In this document: positions 11,947 to 63,646 of the stretch, in pieces | Layout of the letters: each line of letters opens with the position of its first letter | Position numbering within the stretch: the stretch's first letter is position 1 | Assembly (NCBI GenBank): GCA_965371725.1 | Contig: CBDUZO010000001.1 | Span: forward strand, 13,123 to 77,122 | Length of the DNA stretch: 64,000 nucleotides | Direction: 5' to 3' | Origin: an uncultured Phycisphaerales bacterium | Lineage (GTDB): Bacteria > Planctomycetota > Phycisphaerae > UBA1845 | The notes under the pieces: model-generated | The model's database searches: none | Told to the model about the DNA's origin: nothing | Seen by the model: only the letters and a program-made list of their open reading frames with translations | Position numbers and translations under genes: made by a program

Positions 11947-12851
11947 GCGTTTCTCCTATCGGCCCTTCCGCAACGAGAGTGGTCGGTCATTCGGAACGGA
12001 ACTCCCAAGGCCGCCTGCGATCATCGATCCAACGGGCGCACCTTCTCCGCACCATGACCTCCCTCCTTTATCGACTGTCAACGCGAGAGCCTGTGGCACG
12101 GCGCACAATCAGATAGGGACGACAGACGCCTTTTGAACCATGACCGAGGCACAAACCCTCGCCAGTTCAGGGGCGCATCCGTGCGCTCATACAACGGAGA
12201 CGGCGACAACTGCTTGTCAGCAGCCCTAAAGATGACTCAAACGTGGTACGTCAATACAGCTTCGCTAACCTCCTCATCCCCTTCCGGTCAATCAAATCGG
12301 CCGCCCGGCGAAGCCGTAACTGAAGCCAGATGTCAGACCAAGATGTCAAGTATATGAAAAGCATATAGTCCGGACGGCGTTTGGTCAAGGCACGGACGGC
12401 AGGCGACACTTTATCGGCCACCGATTCACCACGAGAAATCATGAATCCTACCGGATGGTCCCGGCCGCGCCGGCGTTGTACGCAAGCTCGCGTCCCGATA
12501 TGCGTCGCACGTCAACCACCCTTGCCCCGATCACCCACTTTGCCAAATGGTCCGATCAGATTTCACCACCAAGGGCAACGTTCGCTGCGAATTCCCTCGC
12601 GGATGCGGGATCGCCGCGAAGGACTCACGGTCAGCGCCCATTGCTCTGCCAGGGGTGAGTATCGGGCCCGCTGCCGACACCCACGATCCTGACGCCAACT
12701 GTCACGCTTCCGGACGTTTTCTGCCCGGCCCGATAGGCCCGATTATTCCATTTTTCCCGGCCGATAGATGATTTGTATGGCACCTTATTGTATGGCTGGG
12801 GTTTCTCGCGAAAGAGGCATCTCGAACACCATTCAAAGCTGGATCGGCCTT

Positions 12852-14672: not shown

Positions 14673-14750
14673 CGCGTCACTCGAGCACGTTCGTCCAATT
14701 CCATCCGCCAAGCGACTCGTATCGCCACGCGCCCGGCGCCCCGGCAGGGG

Positions 14751-15728: not shown

Positions 15729-15960
15729 GGGCTTGGGTGTCGTGCGAAGCTTCTTTGAGGTTCGAGGTCTCGTCCGCCCCGCCGTTCGGGCCACGGCCCG
15801 GACCGGGCCAGCAACCCGCGTGTTGGCACCGGAACTCGATTATTGTAACCTTCCCTCTCGTTGCGGCAAGCCGCACGAGGCGGCGCGGTCAGCCACCTTT
15901 GCTTACGTCGACTAGTGCATCGAAGTTCGACTCCGCCGGAAGGCGGAGAGGGAAACACGA

Positions 15961-43213: not shown

Positions 43214-44118
43214 GCACGGAAGCCGTGAAGGAAAACCCCGTCGAGCAGCTCCTGCGTTCCGACCGCATGCCGCATCTCTGGTGTTCGGGTTGTGGCATTG
43301 GAACAACCGTGAGCTGTTTTGCGCGGGCGATCGAGCGTTGCGGTATTGAACAGGACAAGCTCGTGGTTGTGTCCGGTATCGGGTGTACGGGTCGCGTCGC
43401 GGGGTATGTCAGGCTTGATTCGTTTCATACAACGCACGGCCGGGCCATTCCTTTCGCCACGGGTTTGAAGCTGGCCAATCCCGAGCTGAAAGTCGTGGTG
43501 TACAGCGGAGATGGCGACCTGATTGCCATTGGCGGTAACCATTTCATTCACGCGGCCCGGCGAAACGTGGACATTACGGTCATCTGCGTGAACAACTTCA
43601 ACTACGCCATGACCGGTGGGCAGATCGGCCCGACGACGCCGGTTGACGGAGTGGGGACAACGGCCCCCCACGGAACCTGCGAGCGCCCCTTCAATCTTCC
43701 ATTCCTGGCCGAGTCCTGCGGCGCCGTGTATGTGGCGCGCTGGACGACGTATCACGTTCGTCAACTCACGCGGTCGATGACCGAGGCGATGAACAAGAAA
43801 GGATTCGGCTTTGTCGAGGTGATTGCCCCCTGTCCGACACTGTACGAACGGCGTAACAGGCTCGGTACGGGCCTGGACCGCATGAAGTGGTTCAGGGACA
43901 ACAGCCTAGTGGACGGTAGCCTGGACACCCGCTTGTGCGACATTGGGTTCCAGCAGAGAATCGTGTGCGGCAAGTTCGTCGACGTCGACCACCCCTCCTA
44001 TCTGGAAGTCGTGGGGGCCAAAATGGCAAGCGTCAGCGGCCAGCAACGCTGGGAGAAGATGTTGAAGGAGCAACGCAAGCCGATCGGGCAGTGGGGTGAG
44101 GGGGAATTAGGCGGATGA
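43210..44118 (+). CDS. 2-oxoacid:ferredoxin oxidoreductase beta subunit (TPP-binding)
   Basis: The ATG at 43210 overlaps the alpha stop (ATGA). Matches: WCSGCGIGT, GIGCTGR, SGDGDLIAIGGNHFIHAARRN, INNFNYAMTGGQ. The track's upstream extension from 43009 is out of context. Confidence 0.9.
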   Translation: MSTEAVKENPVEQLLRSDRMPHLWCSGCGIGTTVSCFARAIERCGIEQDKLVVVSGIGCTGRVAGYVRLDSFHTTHGRAIPFATGLKLANPELKVVVYSGDGDLIAIGGNHFIHAARRNVDITVICVNNFNYAMTGGQIGPTTPVDGVGTTAPHGTCERPFNLPFLAESCGAVYVARWTTYHVRQLTRSMTEAMNKKGFGFVEVIAPCPTLYERRNRLGTGLDRMKWFRDNSLVDGSLDTRLCDIGFQQRIVCGKFVDVDHPSYLEVVGAKMASVSGQQRWEKMLKEQRKPIGQWGEGELGG

Positions 44119-49569: not shown

Positions 49570-49630
49570 CTTCACGGATTCTCCCGCCTGGCGGGCCGTG
49601 TGGCAAGCGGTCAATGTGGGGGCTTCTTAG

Positions 49631-49803: not shown

Positions 49804-50304
49804 TTACGAGGGGTTTGCATCACGGCGGGCGTGCAGCCAGCACCGAACATCGCGCTCGATCCGGTCGATGACCGTCTCGATCCCACGCGCCACCGGTACG
49901 CCGAGCTTCAACCGCCGCTCGAAGCTGCTGCCGAAGACAGCATAGACCCAGACATCTTTCGGCAACTGCCCGAGTGCGTCCGCGAGCTGAAGACCGCTGC
50001 ATACGCCGAGACCGTGGGTACCACCCTGCGCCCTTTCGGTAAGGGCATCGGGGTGTTCGTGATAGTCAATCCTCTCGAATGAGCCGGATGGGTGAGACAC
50101 ATCCGCGGCGGCGGCGTCCACGACGATGAGCAGCCCGATGGTACCGTCGAGTCCGGAGGCCAGCTCGCTGCCCGGTGTCTCCGTGCGGGCGATGACCGTA
50201 TCCGGTAGATGTCGCTCGAGAAGACCGTCCGCCACCGCGAGTCCGGCCAAGTCATCACCCATGGACGATCGCCCGCATCCGACGATTCGCACGGCGGTCG
50301 ACAT
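49804..50304 (-). CDS. Hydrogenase maturation endopeptidase (HycI/HoxW/FrhD family)
   Basis: 166-aa ORF directly downstream of the large subunit. Matches: VRIVGCGRSSMGDDLAG, LLIVVDAA, GTHGLG. Confidence 0.85.
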   Translation of the reverse strand: MSTAVRIVGCGRSSMGDDLAGLAVADGLLERHLPDTVIARTETPGSELASGLDGTIGLLIVVDAAAADVSHPSGSFERIDYHEHPDALTERAQGGTHGLGVCSGLQLADALGQLPKDVWVYAVFGSSFERRLKLGVPVARGIETVIDRIERDVRCWLHARRDANPS

Positions 50305-50309
50305 GACGA

Positions 50310-51614
50310 CTACACCCAGTCGATATCGAGGAAGTGGGTCGCGCAGGAGATGCAGGGATCGTAGGCCCGCATCAGCATCTCCAACCGAAGCGTCATTTCC
50401 TCCTTGCTCATGCCCGAGTCAAGAAGGCCCGGCATCATGGCCCGCATGTCGGCTTCGAGGTTGGCCAGGTTCTGCGCCGTGGGGATAATCAGATTGGAGC
50501 CTACGATAATGCCTTTCTCGTCGAGCTCGTACTCGTGAAACAGAATCCCACGCGGTACCTCACTCGATCCGACACCCCTTCCGAAATGGGTCGGCTCGAC
50601 AAGCGATTCTTCCTTCAACCCTCGCGTGAGCAACGTATCAATCAGTTCGATCGAGTTCTCCGTTACGTGTACACACTCCACGATCTGAGCGGTGTTGTTG
50701 TGGAACGGGTTATGGCAGATCGGCTCGAGTCCAAGCAAACTCGCCACCTTTTTCGCTTCCGGATGCAATTGATCGTAGTTGTTGTTAACGCGGGCCAGCG
50801 CGCCGACCATGTAGCTTGCCGATTGCGGCGAGCGCGAATGCTTGGCCGTTGAGTGTTCCACTACCGTTTCGATCACCCGCTCACGGTAGTTGGAGACCGC
50901 AGTTGGGGCGGGCTGAAGCGTAGAGACAATGTTGCCGTTGTAGAAAGCGTACTCGCCTTCATCCGTTGCCTTGAGTGACACGAACTCCGTTTCGCGGGTG
51001 AAGTCCGGAATCTCGAACGTAAGGAGGGTTTTCGCGGTTTCCTGTAAATCCGCTCGGGACTCCTCGAGACGACGCTTGAGGGCAAGCAGTTCCTCCGCTC
51101 GCGGCAGGTGCGTCAATCCCCCGGGATGAACGGCGATCGGGTGAATATGCCGGCCACCTACGGCACCGCAGATGTCATTGGCCAACTTCTTCATCCTCAA
51201 TGCCCGCTTAACGACATCAGGATGGGTCGTGGCCAACGGAATGACCGACCCTACGCCGAGAAAGTCCGGAACGGCCAGGAAGTACACATGGAGAATGTGG
51301 CTTTGCAACTCCTCTCCGTTAAGAAGCAGCCTGCGAAGGATCGTTGCCTGCTCGCTGATCTCGATGCCGGTCGCGGCCTCGATGGCCTGAACGGAAGCAC
51401 ACGTGTGCCCAACGCTGCAAATCCCACAGATACGACATGTGATGTGCGGCGCCTCGAACCAGCGCCGGCCGCGCAAGAAAGCCTCGAAGAACCGCGGGCT
51501 CTCGACGATCTGAAGCTCGATCTTCGTAATCTCGCCATCCTCGACGTTGACGAGGATGTTGCCGTGCCCCTCGACGCGGGTCACATGCCGGACGTCAATC
51601 GTGACGTTCTTCAC
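50310..51614 (-). CDS. [NiFe]-hydrogenase large (alpha) subunit, group 3b-like
   Basis: N-terminal Ni-binding RICGICSVGH and C-terminal DPCISCATH. I place the start at GTG 51614 (VKNVTIDVRHVTRVEGHG), preceded by GGAGG at 6-nt spacing. The track's start at 51746 overlaps the delta gene. Confidence 0.9.
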   Translation of the reverse strand: MKNVTIDVRHVTRVEGHGNILVNVEDGEITKIELQIVESPRFFEAFLRGRRWFEAPHITCRICGICSVGHTCASVQAIEAATGIEISEQATILRRLLLNGEELQSHILHVYFLAVPDFLGVGSVIPLATTHPDVVKRALRMKKLANDICGAVGGRHIHPIAVHPGGLTHLPRAEELLALKRRLEESRADLQETAKTLLTFEIPDFTRETEFVSLKATDEGEYAFYNGNIVSTLQPAPTAVSNYRERVIETVVEHSTAKHSRSPQSASYMVGALARVNNNYDQLHPEAKKVASLLGLEPICHNPFHNNTAQIVECVHVTENSIELIDTLLTRGLKEESLVEPTHFGRGVGSSEVPRGILFHEYELDEKGIIVGSNLIIPTAQNLANLEADMRAMMPGLLDSGMSKEEMTLRLEMLMRAYDPCISCATHFLDIDWV

Positions 51615-51663: not shown

Positions 51664-52407
51664 TCATGGCAGCGTCTTCTCCTGGTAGGCACCGAACATT
51701 CGCAGGTCCGCCAACACGTCCTGAAGGTCGACGTCGTACTGTTCACGCAGGTTAATACCCGCCGCTTTCAACGCCTCGTCATGGACGATACCGCGGCATC
51801 CTTCGCACTTCGAGCCATAGGCTGGGCAGATGGCGTTGCAGCCGCCTCGGGTAACAGGACCGAGACAGATGATGCCCTTCTCGTACAGGCACGGGATTCC
51901 CTGCCTTTTGCACTCCACGCAGACCGGGTCGTCCGGAAGGCGCCAGGTCCGCCCGACCAATAGGGCCTTGACGAACTCGAGAAACTCCTCCTTGACCATG
52001 GGGCAGCCGGGAAGCTCGTAGTCGACATCCACGGTGGCGGAAAGGGGACGGGCCGGGTTCGTTGGGAACCATTCGGCGTGATCGCCATACACATACTTGC
52101 GATAGTCCGCCTCATCCTGGTAGTTCTTCAGTGTGTTCAGCCCACCCTGGCAGGCACACGCCCCAATGGCAACCAGCACCTTGGAGCACTCACGGAAATG
52201 CTCGAGGTCCTTCACGTCCTCCGGCGTGGAGACCGCACCATCGACGAAACCGATGTCGATGTCCCAGCTTCGCTCGGTCATGCCCTCGCGGAAATTCACG
52301 ATCTCGACAGCGCTGAGGATATCGAGCAGACAATCCTCCAACTCGAGGATCGCGAGCGAGCACCCCTCGCAACTCGTGAGGCTGAAGATCGCTATCCTTG
52401 GCTTCAT
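51664..52407 (-). CDS. [NiFe]-hydrogenase small (delta) subunit, NuoB-like Fe-S protein
   Basis: 247-aa ORF. Matches: IAIFSLTSCEGCSL, AIGACACQGG, GCP, and distal cluster cysteines CVECKRQGIPC...GGCNAICPAYGSKCEGC. Confidence 0.9.
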   Translation of the reverse strand: MKPRIAIFSLTSCEGCSLAILELEDCLLDILSAVEIVNFREGMTERSWDIDIGFVDGAVSTPEDVKDLEHFRECSKVLVAIGACACQGGLNTLKNYQDEADYRKYVYGDHAEWFPTNPARPLSATVDVDYELPGCPMVKEEFLEFVKALLVGRTWRLPDDPVCVECKRQGIPCLYEKGIICLGPVTRGGCNAICPAYGSKCEGCRGIVHDEALKAAGINLREQYDVDLQDVLADLRMFGAYQEKTLP

Positions 52408-53261
52408 TCGATCGCCTCCCGAAGCGCCTTGAGCTCACCGTAACGGAACACGGGCCCTTCAAGACAGACGTACACGTTGTTCGCCTGACAATGCCCGCAC
52501 TTCCCCACGCCGCACTTCATGCGACGTTCGAGAGAGCAGTAGATGTGTCTCTGATGAATCCGCCGCGCGAGCACTTCGAGCACGACGAATTTGAACATGA
52601 CGGGCGGGCCGACAATGACAACCCGCGTCCTCGCCGGGTCGAGCTTCGGCACCTCGCTGAAGAGCGTCGTCACGACGCCGCTTCGACCGCGCCACTGCTC
52701 ATCGGGTCGGTCCACGGTCATATGGAAGTTGACGTCATCACTTTCGCGCCAGAGTGTCAGATCGTTACGAAAGAGAAGTTCGCTCGGCGCCCTGGCACCA
52801 TAAAGCAGGTGAAACTGCCCGAATCGCGCACGCTCATCCAGGATGTATTGGATGAGTGAGCGGACGGGAGCGAGCCCGAGACCGCCGGCCACGATCAGGA
52901 TATCCCTACCGTGCAGGTCGTTTACGTCGAACCCGTTCCCCAACGGACCGCGAACACCGATGGTATCTCCCTCGCGTAGCTTGTGGATGTGCTCGGTCAC
53001 CTCACCTACGCGCCGAACGCAGAGTTCAAAAGCATCGGGCCTGGTCGGGGAGGAGCAGATCGAGATGGGGCATTCGCCGATGCCCAGCAAGGCCACCTGC
53101 ACGAATTGCCCGGGCGCGTGCCCGAGCGGTTGACCGCTTGCAAGCCGAAGTGTGTAGACGTTTTCGAGATCCGTCATCTCGTTCACGGAGACCACCTCAG
53201 CCGCTTCCGGCTCGTACAGGCTTTTCGGTCCGTCGACGTGCTGTTGCCCGAGCGCGGTCAT
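52404..53261 (-). CDS. Hydrogenase gamma subunit: FAD/NAD(P)-binding ferredoxin-reductase-like protein with a C-terminal [2Fe-2S] site
   Basis: 285-aa ORF, PyrK/sulfite-reductase-B-like. Matches: GQFVQV, ISICS, IVAGGLGLAP, CGVGKCGHCQ. Confidence 0.85.
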   Translation of the reverse strand: MTALGQQHVDGPKSLYEPEAAEVVSVNEMTDLENVYTLRLASGQPLGHAPGQFVQVALLGIGECPISICSSPTRPDAFELCVRRVGEVTEHIHKLREGDTIGVRGPLGNGFDVNDLHGRDILIVAGGLGLAPVRSLIQYILDERARFGQFHLLYGARAPSELLFRNDLTLWRESDDVNFHMTVDRPDEQWRGRSGVVTTLFSEVPKLDPARTRVVIVGPPVMFKFVVLEVLARRIHQRHIYCSLERRMKCGVGKCGHCQANNVYVCLEGPVFRYGELKALREAIE

Positions 53262-53263
53262 GA

Positions 53264-54316
53264 TCAGATCTCCTCCGCGAGCTGGTTGTAGATCTCGACC
53301 GAACTGATCTTGGCCGTACAGGCACGATCACATCGACCGCACCCCACACACCCGGGCAGGCCTTCCCGCTCCTTTACCCATTTCGCCTTTCGGTAGATGC
53401 GATGACGAAGACGGGCAGCCGCCTTCTCCCGGAAGTTGTGATCGCCGGCGACAACGGCAAAATTCCGAAGCTGACAGCCATCCCACTCTCGCTTGCGCGT
53501 GCCGGCCACAAGCGACATCTCCAGCTCGTCATACGTGTTGAAACAGTAGCAGGTCGGGCAACTCAGGTTGCAGCTCCCGCACGAGTAGCATCGTCGGGCC
53601 GTTGCCTCCCAGAGGAGTGAGTCGTAGCTGCGGTCCAGCAGATCGGGCAAGGTATTCACGTCATAAGGGATTTTCGCCGGAAACGCCCGGTCCTTGTCAG
53701 CCAGGTATTGTTCGAAGCTGCGTTCGTCCTCAACCGTGGGCGGCCCGCCCGCCTGGGAGTAAAGGACGAACTCCCGTCCCGCGTCGGTCCCGAAGACAAT
53801 CCCGTACCGGACGTCGTCCGATCCGCCATTCGGTGGCAGCGGATGACACATCAGGTCGGACCCCTCGGGGGCCTTGTTGGCTCGCATGTCGCGGCAGAAA
53901 ACACCGTCGGTGCACGGTGCAGAGCAGTCGATCCCGACGATGAATGTCTGCCTTCGTCGAGAAAGGTAATGCTCATCGCGGTTCGTGTTGGCGAAGACGT
54001 GGTCCAGCAGGCGAATCGCATTGATATCGCAAGGGTGCACGCCCACGAGCGCCAACGGGGTTTCGTCGTACACCGGGCTCGTTTCGAACGCACCCGGCCC
54101 CGTCTTGAACGTAAACAGGGCCTGATGGGCGGGAAACAGCGCCGCCTTGGGGCTATAGACGCAGTACTTGAAGTCAAGGTCCAGCTTGCTCGCTCGATCA
54201 ACGGGCTCGTAGAGATGGCGGTCGAACCGCTTTACCGGACCAACAATCCGGCGGGAAAGCGCAAGCTCATCGACAAGTTGGAGAAGCCGGTTTCGCGATA
54301 CAACGCGGTCGAGCAT
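53264..54316 (-). CDS. Hydrogenase beta subunit: 4Fe-4S dicluster protein (AsrA/HydB-like)
   Basis: The start is moved to ATG 54316 (MLDRVVSRNRLLQLVDEL, with AGGAG 10 nt upstream). Cys motifs: CYSCGSCNLSCPTCYC and CVGCGRCDRAC. Confidence 0.85.
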   Translation of the reverse strand: MLDRVVSRNRLLQLVDELALSRRIVGPVKRFDRHLYEPVDRASKLDLDFKYCVYSPKAALFPAHQALFTFKTGPGAFETSPVYDETPLALVGVHPCDINAIRLLDHVFANTNRDEHYLSRRRQTFIVGIDCSAPCTDGVFCRDMRANKAPEGSDLMCHPLPPNGGSDDVRYGIVFGTDAGREFVLYSQAGGPPTVEDERSFEQYLADKDRAFPAKIPYDVNTLPDLLDRSYDSLLWEATARRCYSCGSCNLSCPTCYCFNTYDELEMSLVAGTRKREWDGCQLRNFAVVAGDHNFREKAAARLRHRIYRKAKWVKEREGLPGCVGCGRCDRACTAKISSVEIYNQLAEEI

Positions 54317-54474
54317 CGGTCTCTGCTCCTGAGTAACCGGTTTGGCCGTCGTTGAACGAACACACCACGATGGACGGTAGAACCGGGGCTGCCAACGCCC
54401 GCGACCCACGATCACGGAAGGTCACGCCGACCGCCACACGCCCTTGGCCACATGAAAGGCAAGGATCCCTGCCG

Positions 54475-55974
54475 TCAATCCTGTGTCTCGGCGGCAGGTG
54501 ACGTGGGTTTGCGCAATGTCGTCGTCCGAGTCCCACGTACCGCCGAATTTGGCGTGTCGTGCCTCGGGAACCTCAGCGTAAACTCAGATCCTTCACCCAG
54601 GACGGATCGCACGTCAATCCGTCCGTGCGCCTGCTCGACGACCTCCCGGACAATCGCCAAACCCAACCCTGATCCGGGGATACCGGCTGCCAAGGCCAGG
54701 TTGCCCCGCCGAAACGGGTCGAAGAGGTCGTCCGCCGAACCCTCTGCAATTCCCATTCCAGTGTCCTTCACGGAGATGACCACGGTGCCCAAATCGCCCG
54801 AAGTGGTGATCAGGACGGAGCCGCCCTGCGGCGTGTATTTGATCGCGTTGTCGACAAGGTTGGCCAGGCAATCTTCGAGATCACGTGCCTCGACCGCGAC
54901 GCGTGCGGGACCCGTGACGGTCGAGTCGGCGCGCATGTCGATGTCTTTGGCACTCGCGTGGTCCGCGAACTGCTCCGCCACCTTTGCGACAACCTGGTGG
55001 ACATCGGTGGACGCCTGCCGATGCTCGGAAACGGGCACGTCCTGGACACGAGCCAGCGTGAGCAACTCGGTGACCTGCACGATCGCCTGTCGACAACGAG
55101 CGATAATCCTCGCCACAATGCCCTGCACCGCGTCCGCGTCGACCACACGGTCGCGAATCAGCCCGGCGAGGGTCTCAATGCCGGCCAGGGGCCCCTTAAG
55201 CTGATGGGCGGCTGTCAACATGAACCGCGATCGCCGCCCTTGGAGATCCTGGATCGCCGTTTGGCTACGCATGAGGTTCGCGTTCGCAATCTGCAGGTCC
55301 CGTTCCTGGGCGTCGAGTCGATGCGATATCTGGTACGTGAAATACAACGTTCCCGCCACGCCCGCCGCCAGCACGCCGATCCCGCACAGGACGTAGGTCC
55401 AATCCGTGTGCAACTGGGAATCCGCAGTCGAGGCCAAAAAAGGATAATGAGGCTGTATCAGGCCCACGCACTCCCCCACCCCCAGCGCACTGTACAACAG
55501 AAGTGCCCAGCACCCCTGGAGCGAGGCATTCCAGGGCGTCAGCAGGAGCACGGAGATCAGCATGTGGAACAGGTAGAAGACCGACATCGGGTTCTCGATG
55601 CCGCCTGAGTAGCGAAGGATCACGGTCAACAGCAGGAGATCGACCGTCATCTGGGCGTTGGCGAACAATGTGACGCGACGCACGACCGCCGGTACGATCG
55701 CGTCATCGTCCATGTCCTCCGTCAGCACAGTCCGCCCGACAACCGTCCACGCCAAGTTCACCAGCGCGAGCACGATAATGCACAACGGAAGCTGCGCGGG
55801 TCTATGAAAGTCGGGAACCTGAAGCGCTTCCACCACCAGAAATGGGATCGTGGCCAGGGCGACGAGCCACCGGACGCGGATGAACCAGTGATGGCGCACC
55901 ATCGCAAGCAGAACGCCGATGCGAAGCGTCCCATAAGGAAGGAGGCGAGGAGTCAGGCTTCTGTTGCCATGCAT
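54475..55974 (-). CDS. Membrane sensor histidine kinase
   Basis: 499-aa ORF with about 6-7 N-terminal TM segments. H-box LTAAHQLKGPLAGI. HATPase boxes LVDNAIKYT, VKDTGMGI, GSGLGLAIV. Confidence 0.85.
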   Translation of the reverse strand: MHGNRSLTPRLLPYGTLRIGVLLAMVRHHWFIRVRWLVALATIPFLVVEALQVPDFHRPAQLPLCIIVLALVNLAWTVVGRTVLTEDMDDDAIVPAVVRRVTLFANAQMTVDLLLLTVILRYSGGIENPMSVFYLFHMLISVLLLTPWNASLQGCWALLLYSALGVGECVGLIQPHYPFLASTADSQLHTDWTYVLCGIGVLAAGVAGTLYFTYQISHRLDAQERDLQIANANLMRSQTAIQDLQGRRSRFMLTAAHQLKGPLAGIETLAGLIRDRVVDADAVQGIVARIIARCRQAIVQVTELLTLARVQDVPVSEHRQASTDVHQVVAKVAEQFADHASAKDIDMRADSTVTGPARVAVEARDLEDCLANLVDNAIKYTPQGGSVLITTSGDLGTVVISVKDTGMGIAEGSADDLFDPFRRGNLALAAGIPGSGLGLAIVREVVEQAHGRIDVRSVLGEGSEFTLRFPRHDTPNSAVRGTRTTTLRKPTSPAAETQD

Positions 55975-55998
55975 GGCTGCTGCGGCAGATCAAGGAAC

Positions 55999-56400
55999 CT
56001 ATGGGTTGTCCCGCTTCGCAAGGGCTTCCCGGACCGCTTCGAGCACGACGTCGACCTTGAGCGGTTTGTCCAGGAACTTCTCAGCCGGGACGTAGTCGCT
56101 TCCAAGCTCCTTGGCATAGTCCATCCCCATGGTCTGGCCTATCGCCGAGATCATGATGATCGGAATCTTCGCGATCGCCTCGTCCTTCTTCAGCTCATAC
56201 GCGAGGTGAAACCCCTCCGTGGGAGAGGCCAGCATGATGTCCAAAAGGATCACATCAGGAGGCTCAGCCTGAATGGCCGCCGTCCCTTCAGGCCCGGTCG
56301 AGCAACAGGTCAACCGGTAGCCGGCCGGTTCCAGCATGAGCGTTAGGGCTTCACGCACGTCCGGATCATCGTCGATGATTATGATATGTTCACCCGCCAT
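55999..56400 (-). CDS. Stand-alone response-regulator receiver (CheY-like)
   Basis: The start is moved to ATG 56400 (MAGEHIIIIDDDPDV). Phospho-acceptor context VILLDIML, IIMISA, KFLDKP. No output domain. Confidence 0.85.
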   Translation of the reverse strand: MAGEHIIIIDDDPDVREALTLMLEPAGYRLTCCSTGPEGTAAIQAEPPDVILLDIMLASPTEGFHLAYELKKDEAIAKIPIIMISAIGQTMGMDYAKELGSDYVPAEKFLDKPLKVDVVLEAVREALAKRDNP

Positions 56401-56520
56401 TGCTCGAGTCTCCCGGCAGGAGGATCGCACGGCTTCCAACTGCGCCGGACGTTCCATCGCGCCGGCCAGCCGCTCCGACATCATAAGCGCACGCCCGCCC
56501 TCTGGCGAGCAAGAATCCGT

Positions 56521-56537
56521 TGGCACGGCACGTGCCA
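56521..56537. promoter_or_regulatory. Palindromic TGGCA-N7-TGCCA site readable as a sigma-54 -24/-12 element on both strands
   Basis: TGGCACGGCACGTGCCA. The plus strand reads TGGCAC-N5-GTGC and the minus strand TGGCAC-N5-GTGC, each with GG/GC at canonical spacing. It lies between the divergent receiver genes (starts 56400 and 56674). Confidence 0.4.
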
Positions 56538-56673
56538 CCCCACTTAGTGAGTGCGGAGACCCTGTCCAAAGAGCCTATCCTGCCGGCACCGGGCAACGAC
56601 GGGCCGCCGCAGAGGTTGGACAGACGCCCCGAAGGCGCCTGGCGGCGGGGATTGTCAGCCGAGCTGGAAGGCG

Positions 56674-57108
56674 ATGAGCAAGATGGACAAAGTCCTCGTA
56701 ATCGATGACGACGACGACTATCGCGCGTCGGCGCGGGCGTTGCTCGAAAGCGAAGGGTACGAGGTGGTCGAGGCCTGCGGCGGTCGAGAAGGGCTGGCCG
56801 CCGCGCTTACACACCGCCCCGATGTGATCGTATTGGACGTCATGATGGAGGGCCTGCAAGACGGGTACTCAGTCAATCAGGCGATCAAGTTCGCACCGGA
56901 GTACCGCGACTTGGCGAACACACCGATCCTCATGGTGTCGTCGATGGAACTGCCCCCGGATAGGCTCCTTGGTTGGATCGGCGATACGTCCCGGATCACG
57001 CCGGATGCTTATCTGGCCAAGCCCATCGACATCCCGGCGTTCCTTGACTGTATCCGAAGATTGCTGGCGGGATCGGGGCGGCCGACGCCCGCAGAACCGG
57101 CGGATTAG
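56674..57108 (+). CDS. Stand-alone response-regulator receiver (CheY-like), paralog A
   Basis: The start is moved to ATG 56674 (or 56683). Matches: VLVIDDDDDYRASARALLESEGYEV, VIVLDVMM, ILMVSS, AYLAKP. Confidence 0.85.
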   Translation: MSKMDKVLVIDDDDDYRASARALLESEGYEVVEACGGREGLAAALTHRPDVIVLDVMMEGLQDGYSVNQAIKFAPEYRDLANTPILMVSSMELPPDRLLGWIGDTSRITPDAYLAKPIDIPAFLDCIRRLLAGSGRPTPAEPAD

Positions 57109-57336
57109 ATGCAACGGGACCCCCCGGAAGCGGATGTCCGGGTTCGTGTCGGTCCAGGTTGACGTTCTCAACTTCCAGGGCTAGGGTGCCTTGAACCTGG
57201 GAAATGTGCGCGGGGTTGAGCTTGCCCATGACGGATCATCGCTGTTGGCGGGTTTCCTCCCTCATCGTACCGCGTGATGCCCGATCATCGGCGAGGCCCC
57301 CCCGCCGCTTGGATGCTGATTCTTGACACGGAGACC

Positions 57337-57756
57337 ATGCCCATGTCGGCAGAGGCAGAATCCAAAACCAGAATCCTGATCATCGACGACGATGCCGATT
57401 ACCGCGCCTCGACTCGCGCGTTGCTCGAAGGCGAGGGGTACGAGGTGGCGGAGGCGAACAGCGGCCGCGCAGGCCTCGAAGCCGCGCAAACGAACCGGCC
57501 CGATCTGATCGTCCTTGACGTCATGATGGAGAGCCCGGTTGAAGGATATTCGGTCGTCCAGGCGCTCAAATCCCACAACGGAGACGACAGCGCGCGCCAG
57601 GTTCCCGTCATCATGGTCTCCTCGATTAGCGATGACCCCGCCAGCCGGTATCCGATGGCCGGCGAGGTCGGCATGATTACGCCCGATGCGTACATGACCA
57701 AACCACTCGATATCCCGCAATTCCTGCAATGCGTGCAACGTATGTTGGACACCTAG
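57337..57756 (+). CDS. Stand-alone response-regulator receiver (CheY-like), paralog B
   Basis: The start is moved to ATG 57337 (or 57343). Matches: ILIIDDDADYRASTRALLEGEGYEV, LIVLDVMM, VIMVSS, AYMTKP. It is clearly similar to paralog A at the nucleotide level too. Confidence 0.85.
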   Translation: MPMSAEAESKTRILIIDDDADYRASTRALLEGEGYEVAEANSGRAGLEAAQTNRPDLIVLDVMMESPVEGYSVVQALKSHNGDDSARQVPVIMVSSISDDPASRYPMAGEVGMITPDAYMTKPLDIPQFLQCVQRMLDT

Positions 57757-57922
57757 GCGTGCAGCCCTCAGCGGCCTGGAATCAGGCACCGGGCTCGAGC
57801 GCAGTCACGTCTTACGGTCTGACGGCCCGACGCGGCGTATTCACGGCCGTCCGAGGCGTAGACCGCCGGCGTCCATTCCGGAGGCCGAGACCCCAAGGGT
57901 CGTTGGAGCGGAGTCAGCGGAC

Positions 57923-59044
57923 ATGAGTGCGGGGATCACGGACGACACACCCATCATCGTCATCGACGACGATCCAGCCATGCGCCGCGCCTGTGAGGCG
58001 GCACTGAAGCGTGCGGGCTACAAAGTCGAAACATTCCCGGATGGTCCCTCGGGATTAGCGCGGATTCAGGAGGCAAACCCTGACCTGATCATCGTTGACC
58101 TGAAGATGCCGGGGATGGACGGCATGGAAGTCATCGAGAAGGTCAAGCAAAGCAACCCGGATGTGGTCGCCATCGTGATCACAGGCTTTGCGACGGTCAC
58201 CACGGCCGTCGATGCGATGAAAGTCGGCGCCTACGACTTCCTCCCCAAACCGTTTACCGCCGAGGAGCTCCGCGTCATCCTCTCGCGCGGTATGGAGCAC
58301 CGACGGCTCGTGATGGAGACCCAGCGACTGCGCAAGGAGAAGGAGACACAGGCCCGCAAGTTCGTCACCTTCGTTTCTCATCAGTTGAAGTCCCCCCTCG
58401 GAGCGGTTCAGCAATATCTCGATGTGCTGTGTTATCAGTCTGGTGATGAGCTTCCGGAGCGGCAGCGTCAGTGGATCAGCCGCTCGAGCGCAAAGATCGC
58501 CGGGATGCTGCAGGTAATCAATGACTGGCTGACGATCTCCAAGGTCGAGGGAGGACAATTGGCGACGGAGCGAAAGCCGGTACGATGGCAGGAGCTTGCG
58601 CCCGACGTGGTGGAGACGGTTGCGGCCGCCGATGACCGAAACGTTGTGATCCGCAACGAGCTGTCGGATGACCTTCCACCTGTGATTGGAGATGCCATAG
58701 CCCTTCGAATGTTGTTGGCCAACCTGGTCAACAATGCCGTCAAATACAATCATCCGGACGGCCAGGTATGGATCAAAGGTGACAGCGACGATCGGACGGT
58801 CACTCTGTCGGTCACTGACAGCGGCCCGGGCATCAGCGCCGAGGACCGGGAGCACATTTTCGAGGAGTTCTATCGTATCCAGGGCGGGGGTGCGGGCGGT
58901 ACGGGCATGGGGTTGCCCATTTGCCGAAAGATCGCCGAGGAGTTGGGTGGACGGATCACGCTCACCAGCAGCCCCGGTGAAGGCTCGACCTTCACTGTTG
59001 CGCTTCCGCAAGCCACAACCGACGACGCGGCCGACGGACAATGA
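57923..59044 (+). CDS. Hybrid protein: N-terminal receiver + histidine kinase (HisKA + HATPase)
   Basis: REC: IIVIDDDPAMRR, LIIVDLKMPGMDG, VIVITG, DFLPKP. H-box FVSHQLKSPLGAV. HATPase boxes LVNNAVKYN, VTDSGPGI, GTGMGLPICRKI. Confidence 0.9.
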   Translation: MSAGITDDTPIIVIDDDPAMRRACEAALKRAGYKVETFPDGPSGLARIQEANPDLIIVDLKMPGMDGMEVIEKVKQSNPDVVAIVITGFATVTTAVDAMKVGAYDFLPKPFTAEELRVILSRGMEHRRLVMETQRLRKEKETQARKFVTFVSHQLKSPLGAVQQYLDVLCYQSGDELPERQRQWISRSSAKIAGMLQVINDWLTISKVEGGQLATERKPVRWQELAPDVVETVAAADDRNVVIRNELSDDLPPVIGDAIALRMLLANLVNNAVKYNHPDGQVWIKGDSDDRTVTLSVTDSGPGISAEDREHIFEEFYRIQGGGAGGTGMGLPICRKIAEELGGRITLTSSPGEGSTFTVALPQATTDDAADGQ

Positions 59045-59051
59045 TACTCTG

Positions 59052-61100
59052 ATGGAACCCGCACGCTGGACACATTCACTGACGTCTCGCATCGTAATCA
59101 GCTACTCGCTGATCCTGATTCTGGGCGGTCTGTCCACGTCAATCATCGGAATCCACGTGACCGGTCAGGCCTTGCTGCAACAGGCCGGACAGCAAACCGC
59201 GTTCGGATTATCGCTCGCGCGGACCATTTATTCCCACCGCACGGAAGAGCTGCGCCAGGTCGTCGACATGGTAGCCTCGAGCACGCGGCTTCAAGACGCG
59301 ACGACAGCCGGTGATCCGTCAACTGCCGCGGGATACTTGGATCAGGTCCGACGAGAACATGGTCTGGACTTCCTATCGGTCACCGATGCAGCCGGTGAGG
59401 TGATCCTGCGAACGTCCGGCCTCGGCAGCACGGGTGACAACGTAACCGGTGTTACGCCGATCGATCGCGCCCTTCAAGGTGATCCGGCATCCGGGACGGA
59501 ACTCATTCCTCTGCGAATCCTTCAGATGGAAGGACCGGACCTGGCAGAACAGACGGTCGTCAGACTCTCGTCCGACGCCGAGTCGCGCTCTACCGCTCAG
59601 GGTGTGAATCCGGCGAGCAAGGCGGGGATGGCGCTGCTCGCGGCGGCGCCGGTCAGGAACGAAGACGGCCGGATCATGGCGGTCGTCTACGCCGGTCAGG
59701 TTCTGAATGAGTCGAACGTCCACCGCCGCAAGGGAAAGACCCGAACGCTTGTCGATCAGATTGACGCAGCCATGGCACCCAACTCGAACACTCCGACGCG
59801 GTATCGTGTTACGGCCACGGTCTTTCAGGATGATGTGCGCGTTTCCACGACGGTTGTCGGCGCGGACGGGCGAGCGGTTGTCGGTACACAAGCGACACCG
59901 GAAGTCTACGCTGCCGTGATGAGGCAAGGCGGACCGCGGAGTGAGCGGGCACTTATCGCCGGCGAATCGTACATCACGGCCTACGAACCGATCACGAACC
60001 TGGCCGGCGAGCGGATCGGAATGCTCGCGGTCGGGTTGTCGACGCAACCGTTCACGGCCGTCCGCGACAGAGTAACCCTCAGTTTTGCCGGCATCGCGCT
60101 GTTCTGCTTCCTGTTGATTGTCGTCGTGACCTACTTCCTGACGCGTAGCCTGGTCCGCCCGGTCGAGGAGATGGTCTCCGTTTCGCAAAGCATCGCAGCC
60201 GGCGACCTGAGCCGACGCGTGCGAGCAACCACCGATCGAAGTGAGCTGGGGTTGCTGTCCGCTTCCTTTAACAACATGCTCGATCGCATCAGTCGCATGA
60301 AGGTCGAGCTGGAGGAGTGGGGCAAGACCCTCGAGCAAAAGGTCCAGGAGCGATCGGAGCAGTTGTCCAGCGTTCAGGCACAGGCAGCCCGTCAGGAACG
60401 ATTGGCATCGGTCGGCCAGCTCGCAGCAGGTGTGGCCCATGAAATCAACAATCCTCTCGGCGGCATCTTGACCTTCGCATCGCTTGTGGCGGAGGACCTC
60501 CGGCCGGACGATTCGCATCGCGAGGATCTCGAGGAGATTGTCCGACAGGCGGTCCGGTGCCGCAAGATTGTCACCGGACTGCTTGAGTTCTCCCGTCAGC
60601 GCGAGACGGACATGGCCCCGGCGAACGTCAATCAGGTCCTCGCCCGCACGCTCGCGCTGCTGGAGACCCAGGCCATTTTCCATGACGTGAAGGTCGCCCG
60701 AAGGTTCGATCCGAACATGCCAACGACCGTCATGGACGAGTCACAGATGCAGCAAGTCTTCATGAACATCATCCTCAATGCGGTTGACGCCATGGATGGA
60801 CACGGTTCCATCACGATCGAGACACGTCACAGTAAGGAACGCGGGGAGCTACTTGTCCGAATCAGCGATACTGGATGCGGGATTCCCGACGACATCCGCG
60901 AGTCGATCTTCGATCCGTTCTTCACGACCAAGGACCCGGGGAAGGGCACGGGTTTGGGATTGGCGGTTGCCTGGAAGATCGTCCAGGCCCACGGCGGGCG
61001 GACCGAAGTTGAGAGTACGGTCGGGAAGGGAACCGTGTTCACCATACTCCTGCCGTTCGACGCTGAGAATGCCTCGACTGAGACATCGCCCAATACCTGA
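59052..61100 (+). CDS. Sensor histidine kinase with a periplasmic (Cache-like) sensor, HAMP, HisKA and HATPase domains
   Basis: The start is moved to ATG 59052 (MEPARWTHSLTSRIVISYSLILILGG), 8 nt after the previous stop. The second TM is IALFCFLLIVVVTYFL. HAMP: LVRPVEEMVSVSQSIAAGDLSRRV...SFNNML. H-box GVAHEINNPLGGI. G-boxes SDTGCGIP, GTGLGLAVA. Confidence 0.9.
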   Translation: MEPARWTHSLTSRIVISYSLILILGGLSTSIIGIHVTGQALLQQAGQQTAFGLSLARTIYSHRTEELRQVVDMVASSTRLQDATTAGDPSTAAGYLDQVRREHGLDFLSVTDAAGEVILRTSGLGSTGDNVTGVTPIDRALQGDPASGTELIPLRILQMEGPDLAEQTVVRLSSDAESRSTAQGVNPASKAGMALLAAAPVRNEDGRIMAVVYAGQVLNESNVHRRKGKTRTLVDQIDAAMAPNSNTPTRYRVTATVFQDDVRVSTTVVGADGRAVVGTQATPEVYAAVMRQGGPRSERALIAGESYITAYEPITNLAGERIGMLAVGLSTQPFTAVRDRVTLSFAGIALFCFLLIVVVTYFLTRSLVRPVEEMVSVSQSIAAGDLSRRVRATTDRSELGLLSASFNNMLDRISRMKVELEEWGKTLEQKVQERSEQLSSVQAQAARQERLASVGQLAAGVAHEINNPLGGILTFASLVAEDLRPDDSHREDLEEIVRQAVRCRKIVTGLLEFSRQRETDMAPANVNQVLARTLALLETQAIFHDVKVARRFDPNMPTTVMDESQMQQVFMNIILNAVDAMDGHGSITIETRHSKERGELLVRISDTGCGIPDDIRESIFDPFFTTKDPGKGTGLGLAVAWKIVQAHGGRTEVESTVGKGTVFTILLPFDAENASTETSPNT

Positions 61101-63602: not shown

Positions 63603-63617
63603 TGGCACGCGGCTTGC
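63603..63617 (+). promoter_or_regulatory. Sigma-54 (-24/-12) type promoter upstream of the MFS transporter gene
   Basis: TGGCACGCGGCTTGC matches TGGCACG-N4-TTGC exactly. It is embedded in a TGGCA-N7-TGCCA palindrome, about 125 nt upstream of ATG 63742. Confidence 0.45.
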
Positions 63618-63646
63618 CACACCTGTGCTCCAAGTAGGACAGTCCG

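Follow-up and report, generated by a model that had tools for sequence, protein, structure and literature searches.

The six consecutive signalling genes in the 64-kb stretch of DNA analysed here (the window), from a Phycisphaerae-like genome, are two two-component modules, A (RR1 and HK1) and B (RR2, RR3, RRHK, and CacheHK). Both modules recur beside or inside group 3b [NiFe] hydrogenase operons in three bacterial phyla. The explanation that we favour, tentatively and with a probability of about 0.4, is that both serve the adjoining NAD(P)-linked group 3b [NiFe] hydrogenase and that their receivers act by protein binding.

Domain content of the six genes

Module A lies on the minus strand. 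HK1 (54475-55974) has HisKA and HATPase_c domains in Pfam after a membrane domain of ~240 aa without a Pfam match. RR1 (55999-56400) is a stand-alone receiver, which matches Response_reg only (aa 6-123 of 133). Module B lies on the plus strand and is opened by RR2 (56674-57108; RECa orthology group). RR2 is followed by RR3 (57337-57756; RECb orthology group), and both proteins match Response_reg only. The soluble kinase RRHK (57923-59044) has the Pfam architecture REC-HisKA-HATPase_c with an NtrC-like N-terminal receiver, and the sensor of the module, CacheHK (59052-61100), has the architecture dCache_3/sCache_3_3-HAMP-HisKA-HATPase_c. The public gene calls are identical for HK1 (499 aa), RR1 (133 aa), and RRHK (373 aa). 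The positions and domains given in a preliminary description of this DNA agree with these results, as does its view that none of the six proteins has an output domain. Scans with Pfam and NCBIfam found no DNA-binding, AAA+, GGDEF/EAL, or Hpt domain in the six proteins, and the domain matches leave no space for an output domain. No conserved additional ORF was found in the intergenic gaps of the cluster.

The preliminary description had also treated the six genes as one cluster encoding one branched phosphorelay. The genes are indeed consecutive, but they form two separable modules with distinct evolutionary histories. The elements of a classical His-Asp-His-Asp phosphorelay, Hpt and a kinase with a C-terminal receiver, are absent among them.

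The phospho-acceptor pockets of RR1, RR2, and RR3 are intact, and residues D11, D12, D54, S85, and K112 of RR1 do not vary across 17 orthologs. All of the 120 closest database relatives of RR1 are receiver-only proteins of 111-163 aa, and the closest solved relatives of RR1-3 include RR468, FrzS, and DivK. An orthology matrix placed the receivers in three groups that are specific to modules A and B and are kept across phyla. RR1-3 are receiver-only like DivK, FixT, LovR, CpdR, and CheY, which act by protein contact or feedback. Unlike these regulators, they form module-specific orthology groups, and their genes stand beside hydB in several operons.

Linkage of module A to hydrogenase genes

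We examined synteny in other genomes, and the proposed hydrogenase link proved real and extends well past adjacency. Hydrogenase or hyp genes were found at 14 of the 17 loci that pair an HK1-type kinase with an RR1-type receiver, and their arrangements are of at least five kinds; many of the loci compared in this analysis are phylogenetically related, and the counts therefore overstate the number of independent events. The order RR1-HK1-hydBGDA is present in the window and in L001, L002, L003, L005, L007, L033, and L104, and the order in L029 is hydB-RR1-HK1-hydGDA. Module A adjoins HoxEF-type hydrogenases in L026 and L028 and an Hdr/Mvh-type hydrogenase in L021, and it is flanked by hypF/D/E/B in L006, L026, and L031. 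No hydrogenase was found at the five kinase-only loci.

In the window, RR1 and HK1 share the minus strand with the hydrogenase genes downstream, as had been described. These are hydB (53264-54316; AsrA-like Fe-S subunit; Pfam Fer4_22, NCBIfam ShyB 201 bits), hydG (52404-53261; FAD/NAD(P)-binding subunit with an Fe-S domain; FAD_binding_6, NAD_binding_1, DHODB_Fe-S_bind), hydD (51664-52407; small subunit; Oxidored_q6), and hydA (50310-51614; large subunit of group 3b type; NiFeSe_Hases). The last gene of the unit (49804-50304) encodes a HycI-like hydrogenase maturation protease with a weak match to PF01750 (HycI), and its orthologs hold the equivalent position in L001, L003, L005, L007, L029, and L104. 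In NCBIfam the hydrogenase subunits match sulfhydrogenase ShyA/ShyB and HydA/HydB best, without reaching the equivalog cut-offs; for hydA, ShyA (298 bits) and HydA (254 bits) are both under the cut-off. The hydA product carries an N-terminal RICGICS motif, a C-terminal DPCISCATH motif, and a 7-aa tail. Known regulatory hydrogenases are without the C-terminal tail.

The spacer between HK1 and hydB (54317-54474, minus strand) is 158 nt long, as given by the start of the HK1 stop codon at 54475 and the position of the hydB ATG, 54316. This length confirms the earlier figure. In alignments with L001, L007, and L104, conservation of the spacer was limited to GGAG and the start region, and no conserved element was found besides the ribosome-binding site. 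The RNA fold z-score was +1.3, the single weak hairpin is no more than chance predicts, and there was no Rfam match. The HK1-hydB junction is 0-30 nt or overlapping in L002, L003, L005, L029, and L033.

HK1 and its membrane domain

HK1 had been described as a membrane kinase. It is one, yet not a generic one; it is rather a six-transmembrane, RegB/PilS-like kinase. Six hydrophobic segments form a sensor domain that is fused straight to HisKA-HATPase_c, and in the AF2 model (pLDDT 79.9) TM6 continues into the DHp helix. HK1 matched the NCBIfam ActS/PrrB/RegB model over aa 26-472 with 88.5 bits, against a cut-off of 350, and hhalign with a RegB-like kinase gave a probability of 99.7. The membrane domain is remotely RegB-like. 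The invariant residues of the HK1 family are R35 W36, G124 G125 P129, H257, and R293 C294.

RegB/RegA (PrrB/PrrA, ActS/ActR, RoxS/RoxR) is a global redox system of Proteobacteria, and we compared HK1 with its published features (PMC3000548). Both kinases carry the six-helix domain directly on the kinase core and have GGxxNP in the TM3-TM4 loop (GGxENP in HK1). Both have a conserved Arg in the 'LRW' motif of TM1 (RLRW in HK1) and a basic-flanked Cys ~37-40 residues past the phospho-histidine, which in HK1 belongs to an invariant Arg-Cys. However, the loop of HK1 ends in Met, where RegB has Phe, and the equivalent of RegB Q38 is not conserved in the HK1 family (Thr or Ala). The kinase core of HK1 is PhoR-like, and HK1 is partnered by a stand-alone receiver, whereas RegA-type partners add a Fis-like HTH to the receiver. 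Nor is the wider six-helix family RegB proper. HK1/RR1 is dedicated to one hydrogenase operon, whereas RegB/RegA acts globally; RegB/RegA is reported also to control hydrogen utilisation in Rhodobacter (PMC5359404).

A redox-box-like Cys is kept in at least 112 of 120 members of the HK1 family and in ~98 of 108 members of the CacheHK family, compared with 7 of 64 generic kinases. However, [RK]-Cys occurs at the matching DHp position in ~11% of generic kinases, which weighs against the redox-box reading. The suggested redox input is plausible given the RegB-like features of HK1, and module A probably reads the membrane redox state. Since the six-helix domain is like that of the redox kinase RegB, reading of the quinone pool is most likely. 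Planctomycetes use menaquinone, not ubiquinone. HK1 would sense inside the membrane, most likely the quinone pool via the GGxENP loop, may also read thiol redox through the Arg-Cys of the dimerisation helix, and would set the phosphorylation level of RR1.

The control region upstream of RR1

A conserved control region lies upstream of RR1 (56480-56537). It contains a perfect inverted repeat, TGGCACG-GCA-CGTGCCA (56521-56537), which on either strand also fits a sigma-54 -24/-12 element, and beside it TCGCCA-N17-TATGAT (56508 to 56480, minus strand). L104 has the repeat conserved, with another spacer, and L001 has it in degenerate form. Sigma-54-like matches point to RR1 in the window, L104, L001, L002, and L033. 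At a threshold of at least 10 of 12 positions, five intergenic matches were found in 16 upstream regions, where ~0.26 were expected (background, 0.041 per kb per strand). Since such an element stands before RR1 in several lineages, transcription is probably initiated by a regulator whose gene lies elsewhere. The preliminary description had considered a regulator of this kind, and the putative sigma-54-like promoter fits it. RR1-HK1 and hydBGDA-hycI would be transcribed together; their promoter is probably of the sigma-54 type and would require an activator encoded elsewhere. Alternatively, the palindrome could serve as an operator for a transcription factor, next to a promoter of the sigma-70 type.

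The same region bears on the strongest alternative, in which nothing changes about the sensors or their tie to the hydrogenase but the output is transcriptional. An unlinked DNA-binding regulator, most plausibly an NtrC-type enhancer-binding protein, would act at the sigma-54-like promoter, and the receivers would be phosphate sinks, shuttles, or kinase feedback modulators (FixT, LovR, DivK) instead of enzyme effectors. Some single-domain receivers are known to exert feedback on their own kinase, for example FixT (PMC7078487). Another canonical sigma-54-like site, at 63603 in the window, suggests that the organism uses sigma-54. The kinase core of CacheHK is AtoS/ZraS/NtrB-like, the usual partners of such kinases are NtrC-family activators, and the conserved 7-N3-7 repeat could be an activator-binding site. 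On the other hand, no enhancer-binding protein or other DNA-binding regulator was found in the 64-kb window, and no DNA-binding regulator beside the modules at more than 25 loci in three phyla. Promoters of the TATAAT type, without a sigma-54-like site, precede the acidobacterial operons, and the upkeep of three receiver groups across phyla exceeds the needs of a simple sink. We consider a transcriptional output possible but doubtful, and our best guess for the output is protein-protein control of the hydrogenase.

Linkage of module B to hydrogenase genes

The link to group 3b hydrogenases was also found for module B, which is interleaved with 3b genes at three distant loci, L109, L110 (Bryobacterales), and L111. 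The order there is REC-RRHK-REC-hydBGDA-CacheHK, with overlapping stop and start codons. Four non-Planctomycete loci were sampled, picked by the length of their contigs and regardless of content, and these are three of them. The four-gene order is preserved in L104-L108 and L112, and the RR2 orthologs keep the first position in L104-L108. L104 repeats the six-gene-plus-hydrogenase layout of the window at ~65% protein identity.

These arrangements argue against a second alternative, which we regard as unlikely, namely that only module A is hydrogenase-related. Module B would then be a general carboxylate-sensing system with targets elsewhere, and a neighbour as a leftover or by chance. In Phycisphaerae, module B frequently stands alone. 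It is on the opposite strand in the window and free-standing among unrelated genes in four of the six complete Planctomycetota copies outside it (L105, L107, L108, and L112). In L001, the closest relative, module B has been deleted save for a 123-aa remnant and RR1-HK1-hyd is retained, so module B is dispensable for the enzyme in close relatives. In L106, module B and the HK1-family kinase directly before it adjoin a molybdopterin oxidoreductase, not a hydrogenase; yet this locus is also a second link between A and B.

CacheHK and the proposed order of the module B relay

CacheHK consists of a TM segment (14-32), a double-Cache periplasmic domain, a second TM segment (341-359), HAMP, and an AtoS/NtrB-like HisKA-HATPase_c. 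Pfam matched the full length of sCache_3_3 (93.9 bits) and gave a partial Cache_3-Cache_2 match, and the kinase core matched NCBIfam AtoS with 273 bits. An RCR motif is present at H+40. The AF2 model of aa 30-343 had a pLDDT of 87.8, and Foldseek matched it to DctB, LuxQ, KinD, and formate sensors. In the PDB, CacheHK had significant sequence matches only to 8py0 and 8py1, formate-binding Cache domains of the PacF/Atu0526 type (PMC11804620). The sensor module is homologous to such domains. R263, T266, and T279 correspond to the formate triad Arg/Thr/Thr with identical spacing and are kept in 25-28 of 28 sequences; the pocket Phe and Tyr are conserved as well. In PacF/Atu0526, however, the module is on a chemoreceptor, whereas in CacheHK it is on a histidine kinase and is the second of a two-module domain. 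The Phe at the pocket bottom, which excludes ligands larger than formate in the PacF/Atu0526 type, is Ala in CacheHK, and this weighs against a match in formate specificity. Most Planctomycete members have Gly or Ala at this position, and the acidobacterial ones that are embedded with a hydrogenase have Tyr. Module B probably reads formate-like acids, and CacheHK would bind a small periplasmic carboxylate, either formate or a slightly larger acid.

In NCBIfam, the RRHK receiver is NtrC-like (TIGR01818, 107 bits) and its kinase core matched TorS/PhoR/PnpS-type models. HK1 and the RRHK kinase have PhoR/PnpS-like affinities, CacheHK has AtoS/NtrB-like ones, and RR1-3 are PhoB/CseB-like. These affinities suggest the relay order CacheHK, RRHK receiver, RRHK kinase, RR2/RR3. 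CacheHK would phosphorylate RRHK at its NtrC-like receiver, and phosphorylation of RR2 and RR3 by the PhoR-like RRHK kinase would follow.

Comparison with known systems and proposed mechanism

Dedicated two-component systems encoded with hydrogenase genes are known from H2 sensing for uptake hydrogenases, HoxJ-HoxA/HoxBC and HupT-HupR/HupUV (PMC2974642). The window shares this dedicated arrangement with HoxJ-HoxA/HoxBC but has no group 2b regulatory hydrogenase, soluble PAS kinase, or NtrC-type DNA-binding regulator. Modelled on HoxBC/HupUV bound to HoxJ/HupT, the 3b-type enzyme could be the sensor instead of the target and signal the status of H2 or NAD(P)H to RRHK or the receivers, but despite the overlapping, interleaved signalling and hydrogenase genes of L029, L109, L110, and L111 and the lack in RRHK of a sensor domain besides its receiver, this is very improbable, given that the large subunits keep all catalytic-enzyme motifs including the C-terminal tail, a HycI-type protease gene is present, the PAS domain used by HoxJ is absent from these kinases, and each of the two membrane kinases has a credible sensor domain itself. 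H2 had been proposed as a possible signal, and nothing tested indicates it; quinone/thiol redox and a small carboxylate (formate, for example) are the best candidates.

The mycobacterial group 3b hydrogenase Hyh is controlled by DosS/DosT-DosR. There, too, a redox- or hypoxia-sensing two-component system is coupled to a reductant-disposing 3b hydrogenase. DosR differs in being DNA-binding, global, and encoded away from hyh, and DosS/DosT are soluble GAF-haem kinases.

In the explanation that we favour, the three phosphorylated stand-alone receivers would deliver the output through binding other proteins, and their likeliest target would be the hydrogenase complex itself or its assembly. H2 production or uptake would thereby track the redox state and the level of fermentation products.

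Signaling Proteins and Hydrogenase Genes

The six signaling genes formed two divergent modules. On the minus strand, module A consisted of RR1 (55999-56400), a stand-alone receiver, and HK1 (54475-55974), a six-helix membrane kinase. On the plus strand, module B began divergently from RR1 with two further stand-alone receivers, RR2 (56674-57108) and RR3 (57337-57756), and continued with RRHK (57923-59044), which carries a receiver at the N-terminus of a HisKA-HATPase_c kinase, and CacheHK (59052-61100), a Cache-HAMP kinase. The coordinates of HK1, RR1, and RRHK were identical to public gene calls. The G+C content of the window was approximately 62%, and the nearest relatives of its genes were found in metagenome-assembled genomes of Phycisphaerae or Planctomycetota.

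The preliminary description had proposed a single branched phosphorelay of these six proteins with no output domain. Pfam and NCBIfam, whose matches spanned the six proteins nearly end to end, agreed with its domain assignments, and the scan for output domains bore it out, as no DNA-binding, AAA+, or GGDEF/EAL domain was found. A cryptic output domain was detected neither in any of the six proteins with these libraries nor in the N-terminus of HK1 by a permissive scan. The best 120 relatives of RR1 were all receiver-only and offered no fusion partner as a clue to the output. The intergenic gaps contained only unconserved noise ORFs, with no extra small gene or Hpt, and Hpt was also absent from all six proteins in Pfam and NCBIfam. 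The locus departs from a classical His-Asp-His-Asp phosphorelay in that Hpt is absent and the receiver of RRHK is N-terminal rather than C-terminal. The single phosphorelay was replaced by two modules.

A spacer of 158 nt separated HK1 from the hydrogenase genes on the same strand, namely hydB (53264-54316; Fer4_22), hydG (52404-53261; FAD_binding_6, NAD_binding_1, and DHODB_Fe-S_bind), hydD (51664-52407; Oxidored_q6), and hydA (50310-51614; NiFeSe_Hases), followed by a HycI-like protease gene (49804-50304). According to Pfam, the four-subunit set of group 3b was present: HydB (Fe-S), HydG (FAD/NAD), HydD (small), and HydA (large). The best NCBIfam matches were ShyA/ShyB and HydA/HydB of Pyrococcus-type sulfhydrogenases, with scores below the curated equivalog thresholds (298 bits against a cut-off of 700 for ShyA, and 201 against 690 for ShyB). 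Subunit architecture and best family matches together point to a hydrogenase of the group 3b type.

Other genes were observed nearby. After the hydrogenase genes, the minus strand encoded a 1615-aa protein (44767-49614) with an N-terminal AMP-binding, acyl-CoA-synthetase-like region and a C-terminal GNAT acetyltransferase domain, separated by approximately 800 unassigned aa. This protein was kept in L001, the closest relative of the locus, and in L104, which repeats the layout of the window; a Pat-like CoA-ligase/GNAT protein adjoined the hydrogenase operon of L109. A two-subunit 2-oxoacid:ferredoxin oxidoreductase (POR_N/PFOR_II and TPP_enzyme_C) was encoded at 42059-44118 (+), 6 kb from the hydrogenase, and an FHA-GAF-HATPase_c kinase was encoded at 25944-27635 (+) without a neighbouring receiver gene.

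Sensor Domains and Predicted Wiring

HK1 contained six hydrophobic segments (residues 30-48, 62-80, 101-119, 130-148, 155-173, and 195-213). In its AF2 model (pLDDT 79.9), TM6 was continuous with the DHp helix (residues 192-274), and neither a HAMP nor a PAS domain separated the two. A six-TM N-terminal domain joined straight to the kinase core is also a trait of RegB, the proteobacterial redox kinase. The NCBIfam ActS/PrrB/RegB model NF033792 aligned with HK1 over nearly its full length, at 88.5 bits against a cut-off of 350. In RegB, the quinone-binding loop motif GGXXNPF and R31 have been implicated in quinone binding, and Cys265, 40 residues after His225, in thiol redox control (PMC3000548). 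In a 34-member alignment of the HK1 family, the invariant residues were R35-W36 (helix 1), G124-G125-x-x-x-P129 (helix 3-4 loop), H257, and R293-C294. The HK1 loop reads GGIENPM (residues 124-130, at the TM3-TM4 position); position 128 varies between Asn and Ser, and the final position among Met, Leu, Val, and Phe. A GGxENP-type loop was common to the wider six-helix kinase family (91/102 members).

A profile comparison of HK1 with a RegB-like kinase of Azospirillum, whose gene adjoins cyoBCD and a RegA-like regulator, gave a probability of 99.7 over 390 columns and brought together the LRW, GGxxNP, and Arg-Cys positions. R35, within RLRW, aligned with LRW of that kinase; of the two fully conserved TM1 residues of RegB, R31 and Q38, HK1 has the Arg but carries Thr or Ala instead of the Gln. 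R293-C294, at H257+37, matched DRCK of the Azospirillum kinase, is the putative counterpart of the RegB redox Cys, and is shared by at least 112 of the 120 family members. The membrane domain alone retrieved 792 cluster representatives, most of them with GGxENP, and among these relatives Arg-Cys was confined to the HK1 subfamily. Canonical RegB membership was rejected, since the score was below threshold and no canonical RegB occurred among the second-tier membrane-domain relatives sampled. From these features and scores, we infer RegB-like working of HK1 but not membership of the RegB family; HK1 probably reads quinone or thiol redox state. The partners also differ, as RegA joins its receiver to a Fis-like HTH, whereas RR1 is a receiver only. 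Beyond its ATPase domain, HK1 has a C-terminal tail with a family-conserved motif, [VI]R[GND]TR[AST][ST], which reads AVRGTRTT in the window (54475-54570, residues ~470-499).

In CacheHK, two TM helices flanked a 308-aa periplasmic domain, which was modelled as a double-Cache fold (pLDDT 87.8) like those of DctB, LuxQ, and KinD. The second Cache module was a full-length sCache_3_3 (PF17202, 93.9 bits, residues 231-338, profile positions 7-104 of 107), and the PF17201 match was partial (profile positions 100-185). Either a full-length sCache_3_3 match or a Cache_3-Cache_2 match marks formate-Cache domains of the type found in PacF, a formate-binding chemoreceptor (PMC11804620), and CacheHK bears the former. 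The only significant PDB sequence matches of this module were the formate-binding domains 8py0 and 8py1. Formate is bound in PacF by R142, T145, and T158 (PMC11804620); R263, T266, and T279 of CacheHK have the same +3/+16 spacing and aligned with IRTLTT...VVGT of 8py0. They were kept in 25, 27, and 28 of 28 family members, respectively, as were Phe and Tyr residues of the pocket. PacF-type domains have a Phe at the pocket bottom that admits no ligand larger than formate, whereas the counterpart in the window is A326. Across the family, this residue was Tyr in 11 members, Gly in 9, Ala in 4, and Phe in 2; most members from Planctomycetes carry Gly or Ala here, and the acidobacterial orthologs embedded in hydrogenase operons carry Tyr. 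The probable ligand of CacheHK is a small carboxylate. Formate is the likely ligand of the Tyr-bearing forms, and in this genome the ligand may be slightly larger. CacheHK also had a near-invariant Arg-Cys-Arg exactly 40 residues after the phospho-histidine (~98/108 members); the matching position was Ser in RRHK, and such a motif occurred in 7 of 64 unrelated kinases.

All receivers retained the acidic pocket, phospho-Asp, Ser/Thr, and Lys, and their closest solved relatives were ordinary CheY-like proteins (RR468, FrzS, DivK, and the RpaA receiver). At the level of family similarity, the kinase cores of HK1 and RRHK were PhoR/PnpS/WalK-like and RR1-3 were PhoB/CseB/MtrA-like, while CacheHK was AtoS/ZraS/NtrB-like and the RRHK receiver NtrC-like. 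These affinities suggest that HK1 signals to RR1, and that CacheHK signals to the RRHK receiver and the RRHK kinase in turn to RR2 and RR3. Most RR1 orthologs had a Cys-Cys or x-Cys pair, not invariant, at the end of strand 2 (TCCSTGPEG; residues 33-34, 56299-56304 in the window). The pair is reminiscent of FixT, a cysteine-bearing, Fe-S-binding receiver, yet comprises two cysteines only.

Conservation of the Modules and Candidate Outputs

HK1 relatives were collected by scanning one genome per species with HK1 and metagenomes with the HK1 family alignment. Contigs encoding HK1 and CacheHK homologs provided further loci, which were compared by tblastn and clustering of neighbouring genes. An RR1-type receiver gene was immediately upstream of an HK1-type kinase gene in 16 loci and beside the kinase in L021. 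The survey was a sample, not exhaustive; many loci are related, so such counts are not independent events. Hydrogenase or hyp genes were present in 14 of 17 receiver-kinase loci and in 0 of 5 kinase-only loci. The hydBGDA genes directly followed RR1-HK1 in the window, L001, L002, L003, L005, L007, L033, and L104, and in L029 the pair sat between hydB and hydG. RR1-HK1 was found beside HoxEF-type hydrogenases in L026 and L028 and beside an HdrA/FlpD/[NiFe] operon in L021, and was flanked by Pfam-confirmed hypF, hypD, hypE, or hypB in L006, L026, and L031. A single-chain pyruvate:ferredoxin oxidoreductase was encoded downstream of the HK1-family kinase in L006, L019, and L030.

The L021 operon (9668-16156, minus strand; HdrA-like, FlpD, [NiFe] small and large subunits, HycI) ends with the RR1-type receiver and a 148-aa cNMP-binding protein without a DNA-binding domain, and converges on the HK1-family kinase. 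In L026 (16790-17065) and L028 (8782-9156), the HoxEF-type hydrogenases next to RR1-HK1 come with yet another type of stand-alone receiver, the fourth, which has ~31-35% identity to RR3.

The kinase-hydB junction was 0-30 nt or overlapping in L002, L003, L005, L029, and L033, which implies an ancestral tight operon. The spacer was 140-160 nt in the window, L001, and L104, with the ribosome-binding site as its sole conserved part. An RNA element was rejected, as there was no Rfam match, no sequence conservation, and ordinary folding. An independent promoter was not found as conserved sequence in this gap; the gap may hold an internal promoter.

The receivers fell into three orthology groups, RR1, RR2, and RR3, in a BLAST matrix, and the order RR2-RR3-RRHK-CacheHK was retained in L104, L105, L106, L107, L108, and L112. 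L104 contained the entire layout of the window including the hydrogenase, at ~65% identity. L001 had only a 123-aa remnant of the CacheHK ATPase domain (8865-9236, minus strand; 67% identical to residues 556-680), implying that module B was recently deleted while RR1-HK1-hyd was retained. In L109, L110 (from a Bryobacterales genome), and L111, the order was REC-RRHK-REC-hydB-hydG-hydD-hydA-CacheHK, without the first REC in L111, and stop and start codons overlapped throughout these operons. From these contexts, modules A and B are each independently and recurrently linked to soluble [NiFe] hydrogenases.

Across more than 25 loci in three phyla, neither module was ever accompanied by a gene for a DNA-binding partner. 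A divergent kinase with a NarL-type regulator in L112 was rejected as a clue to the output, as that kinase is not HK1-like. The lack of a DNA-binding partner, the stand-alone relatives of RR1, and the receivers repeatedly abutting hydB together favour output by protein contact. Since the hydrogenase is the only constant neighbour, the leading candidate, with a probability of roughly 0.4, is that the receivers directly control the enzyme or its assembly.

A second, doubtful reading is that an unlinked regulator acts at a sigma-54-like promoter. The RR1/RR2 intergenic region contained a perfect 7-N3-7 inverted repeat with half-sites TGGCACG and CGTGCCA around GCA (56521-56537, TGGCACGGCACGTGCCA), which fits the sigma-54 -24/-12 spacing on both strands. 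L104 retains the repeat around a different spacer, and L001 has a degenerate form of it. A sigma-70-like element, TCGCCA-N17-TA(T/G/A)GAT (TATGAT in the window, 56480-56508), abutted the repeat toward RR1 and was conserved in L104 and L001. In 16 loci, the 400 nt preceding RR1 were scored by a simple count of matches to the sigma-54 consensus TGGCACG-N4-TTGCW (-24 GG, -12 GC). In the window, TGGCACGTGCCGTGCC, 137 nt upstream of RR1, matched 10 of 12 positions; this site is the perfect palindrome that abuts the sigma-70-like element. Intergenic matches of at least 10/12 toward RR1 were found in the window, L104, L001 (GGGCACGGGGTTTGCA), L002, and L033 (CGGCACGGCTCTTGCT), that is, in five loci compared with ~0.26 expected from the background rate for the 16 regions. 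A sixth match, in L026, was not counted because it lies inside the hypE coding sequence, and a weaker site 56 nt upstream of RR1 in the window was not conserved in L104 or L001. In L003, L007, and L026, RR1 closely follows hypE and is probably co-transcribed with it. Neither free-standing module B nor the acidobacterial operons are preceded by a sigma-54-like site; the promoters there are of the TATAAT type. No rpoN, enhancer-binding protein, or other regulator was encoded in the 64-kb window. Sigma-54 dependence of the RR1-HK1-hyd operon is plausible but unproven, and the inverted repeat could just as well serve a dimeric regulator as its operator. Two further sequences were observed: a conserved promoter-like CTATAATCTTAA(A/T)T ~30 nt before the first receiver gene in the acidobacterial-type operons of L109 and L110, and a canonical sigma-54-like TGGCACGCGGCTTGCCA at 63603-63619 (+), downstream of a radical-SAM gene near the window end.

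Third, module B could be functionally unrelated to the hydrogenase in this genome, which we regard as quite improbable. The preliminary description had tentatively linked the whole cluster to the hydrogenase; this linkage recurred for both modules, but module B stood free amid unrelated genes in L105, L107, L108, and L112. Among distant CacheHK orthologs (41-43% identity), picked for long contigs only, 3 of 4 were interleaved with a 3b hydrogenase. In L106 (6246-12073), an HK1-family kinase without RR1 immediately preceded module B and shared its strand. L106 thus shows a second, hydrogenase-free way of joining a module A-type kinase to module B; a Psr/Phs-like molybdopterin oxidoreductase (Molybdopterin, Fer4_11, NrfD) and a multihaem cytochrome come next (12578-17820).

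Last and very improbable, the hydrogenase would itself be the sensor, as in the H2-sensing HoxJ/HupT systems; none of their group 2b regulatory hydrogenase, PAS kinase, and NtrC-type regulator was among the domains and genes of the locus, and a special sensory hydrogenase was rejected because hydA still encodes the metal-binding cysteine motifs at both termini as well as a short tail at the C-terminus, and a protease gene is also present.

Discussion

The output question arises because every receiver lacks an effector domain. Receivers that are direct partners of the hydrogenase would explain the absence of an encoded DNA-binding output. In the fullest form of direct control, the receivers would be phosphorylation-controlled partners of the 3b hydrogenase, and CacheHK-RRHK-RR2/RR3, responding to formate-like carboxylates in the periplasm, and HK1-RR1, responding to quinone or thiol redox state, would jointly gate the soluble enzyme at the protein level, conserved from Acidobacteriota to Planctomycetota. 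All parts taken together, this combined scheme is unlikely.

The locus resembles several known systems in part. The likeness to RegB/RegA lies in the sensor logic, and that to PacF-type formate sensors in the Cache module. With HoxJ/HoxA, the locus shares only a hydrogenase-linked two-component system. For each of these families, one or more defining tests placed the proteins of the locus outside it. Two-component genes inside group 3b hydrogenase operons were not described in the full-text literature searched, which does not in itself prove novelty.

Many environmental bacteria carry group 3b hydrogenases, but, to our knowledge, the bacterial control of these enzymes has been described in very few organisms. 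The locus and its relatives point to a dedicated signaling set, conserved across phyla, that is physically woven into the hydrogenase operon. Its two concrete candidate inputs are a carboxylate of the formate type and the redox state of the membrane or of thiols. Such cross-phylum, operon-level coupling of output-less signaling to a poorly understood hydrogenase class was unexpected, although its parts are ordinary two-component proteins and its mechanism is one that we infer, with ligand, redox sensing, and kinase-receiver pairing predicted from homology. Whichever output applies, defined proteins, candidate ligands, and a promoter element are now available to experimenters. Receivers that act on the enzyme would make this one of few examples in which two-component signaling controls a metabolic enzyme complex at the protein level. 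Should an unlinked sigma-54 activator mediate their action, the locus would represent a new circuit regulating fermentative H2 metabolism in the Planctomycetota and the Acidobacteriota.
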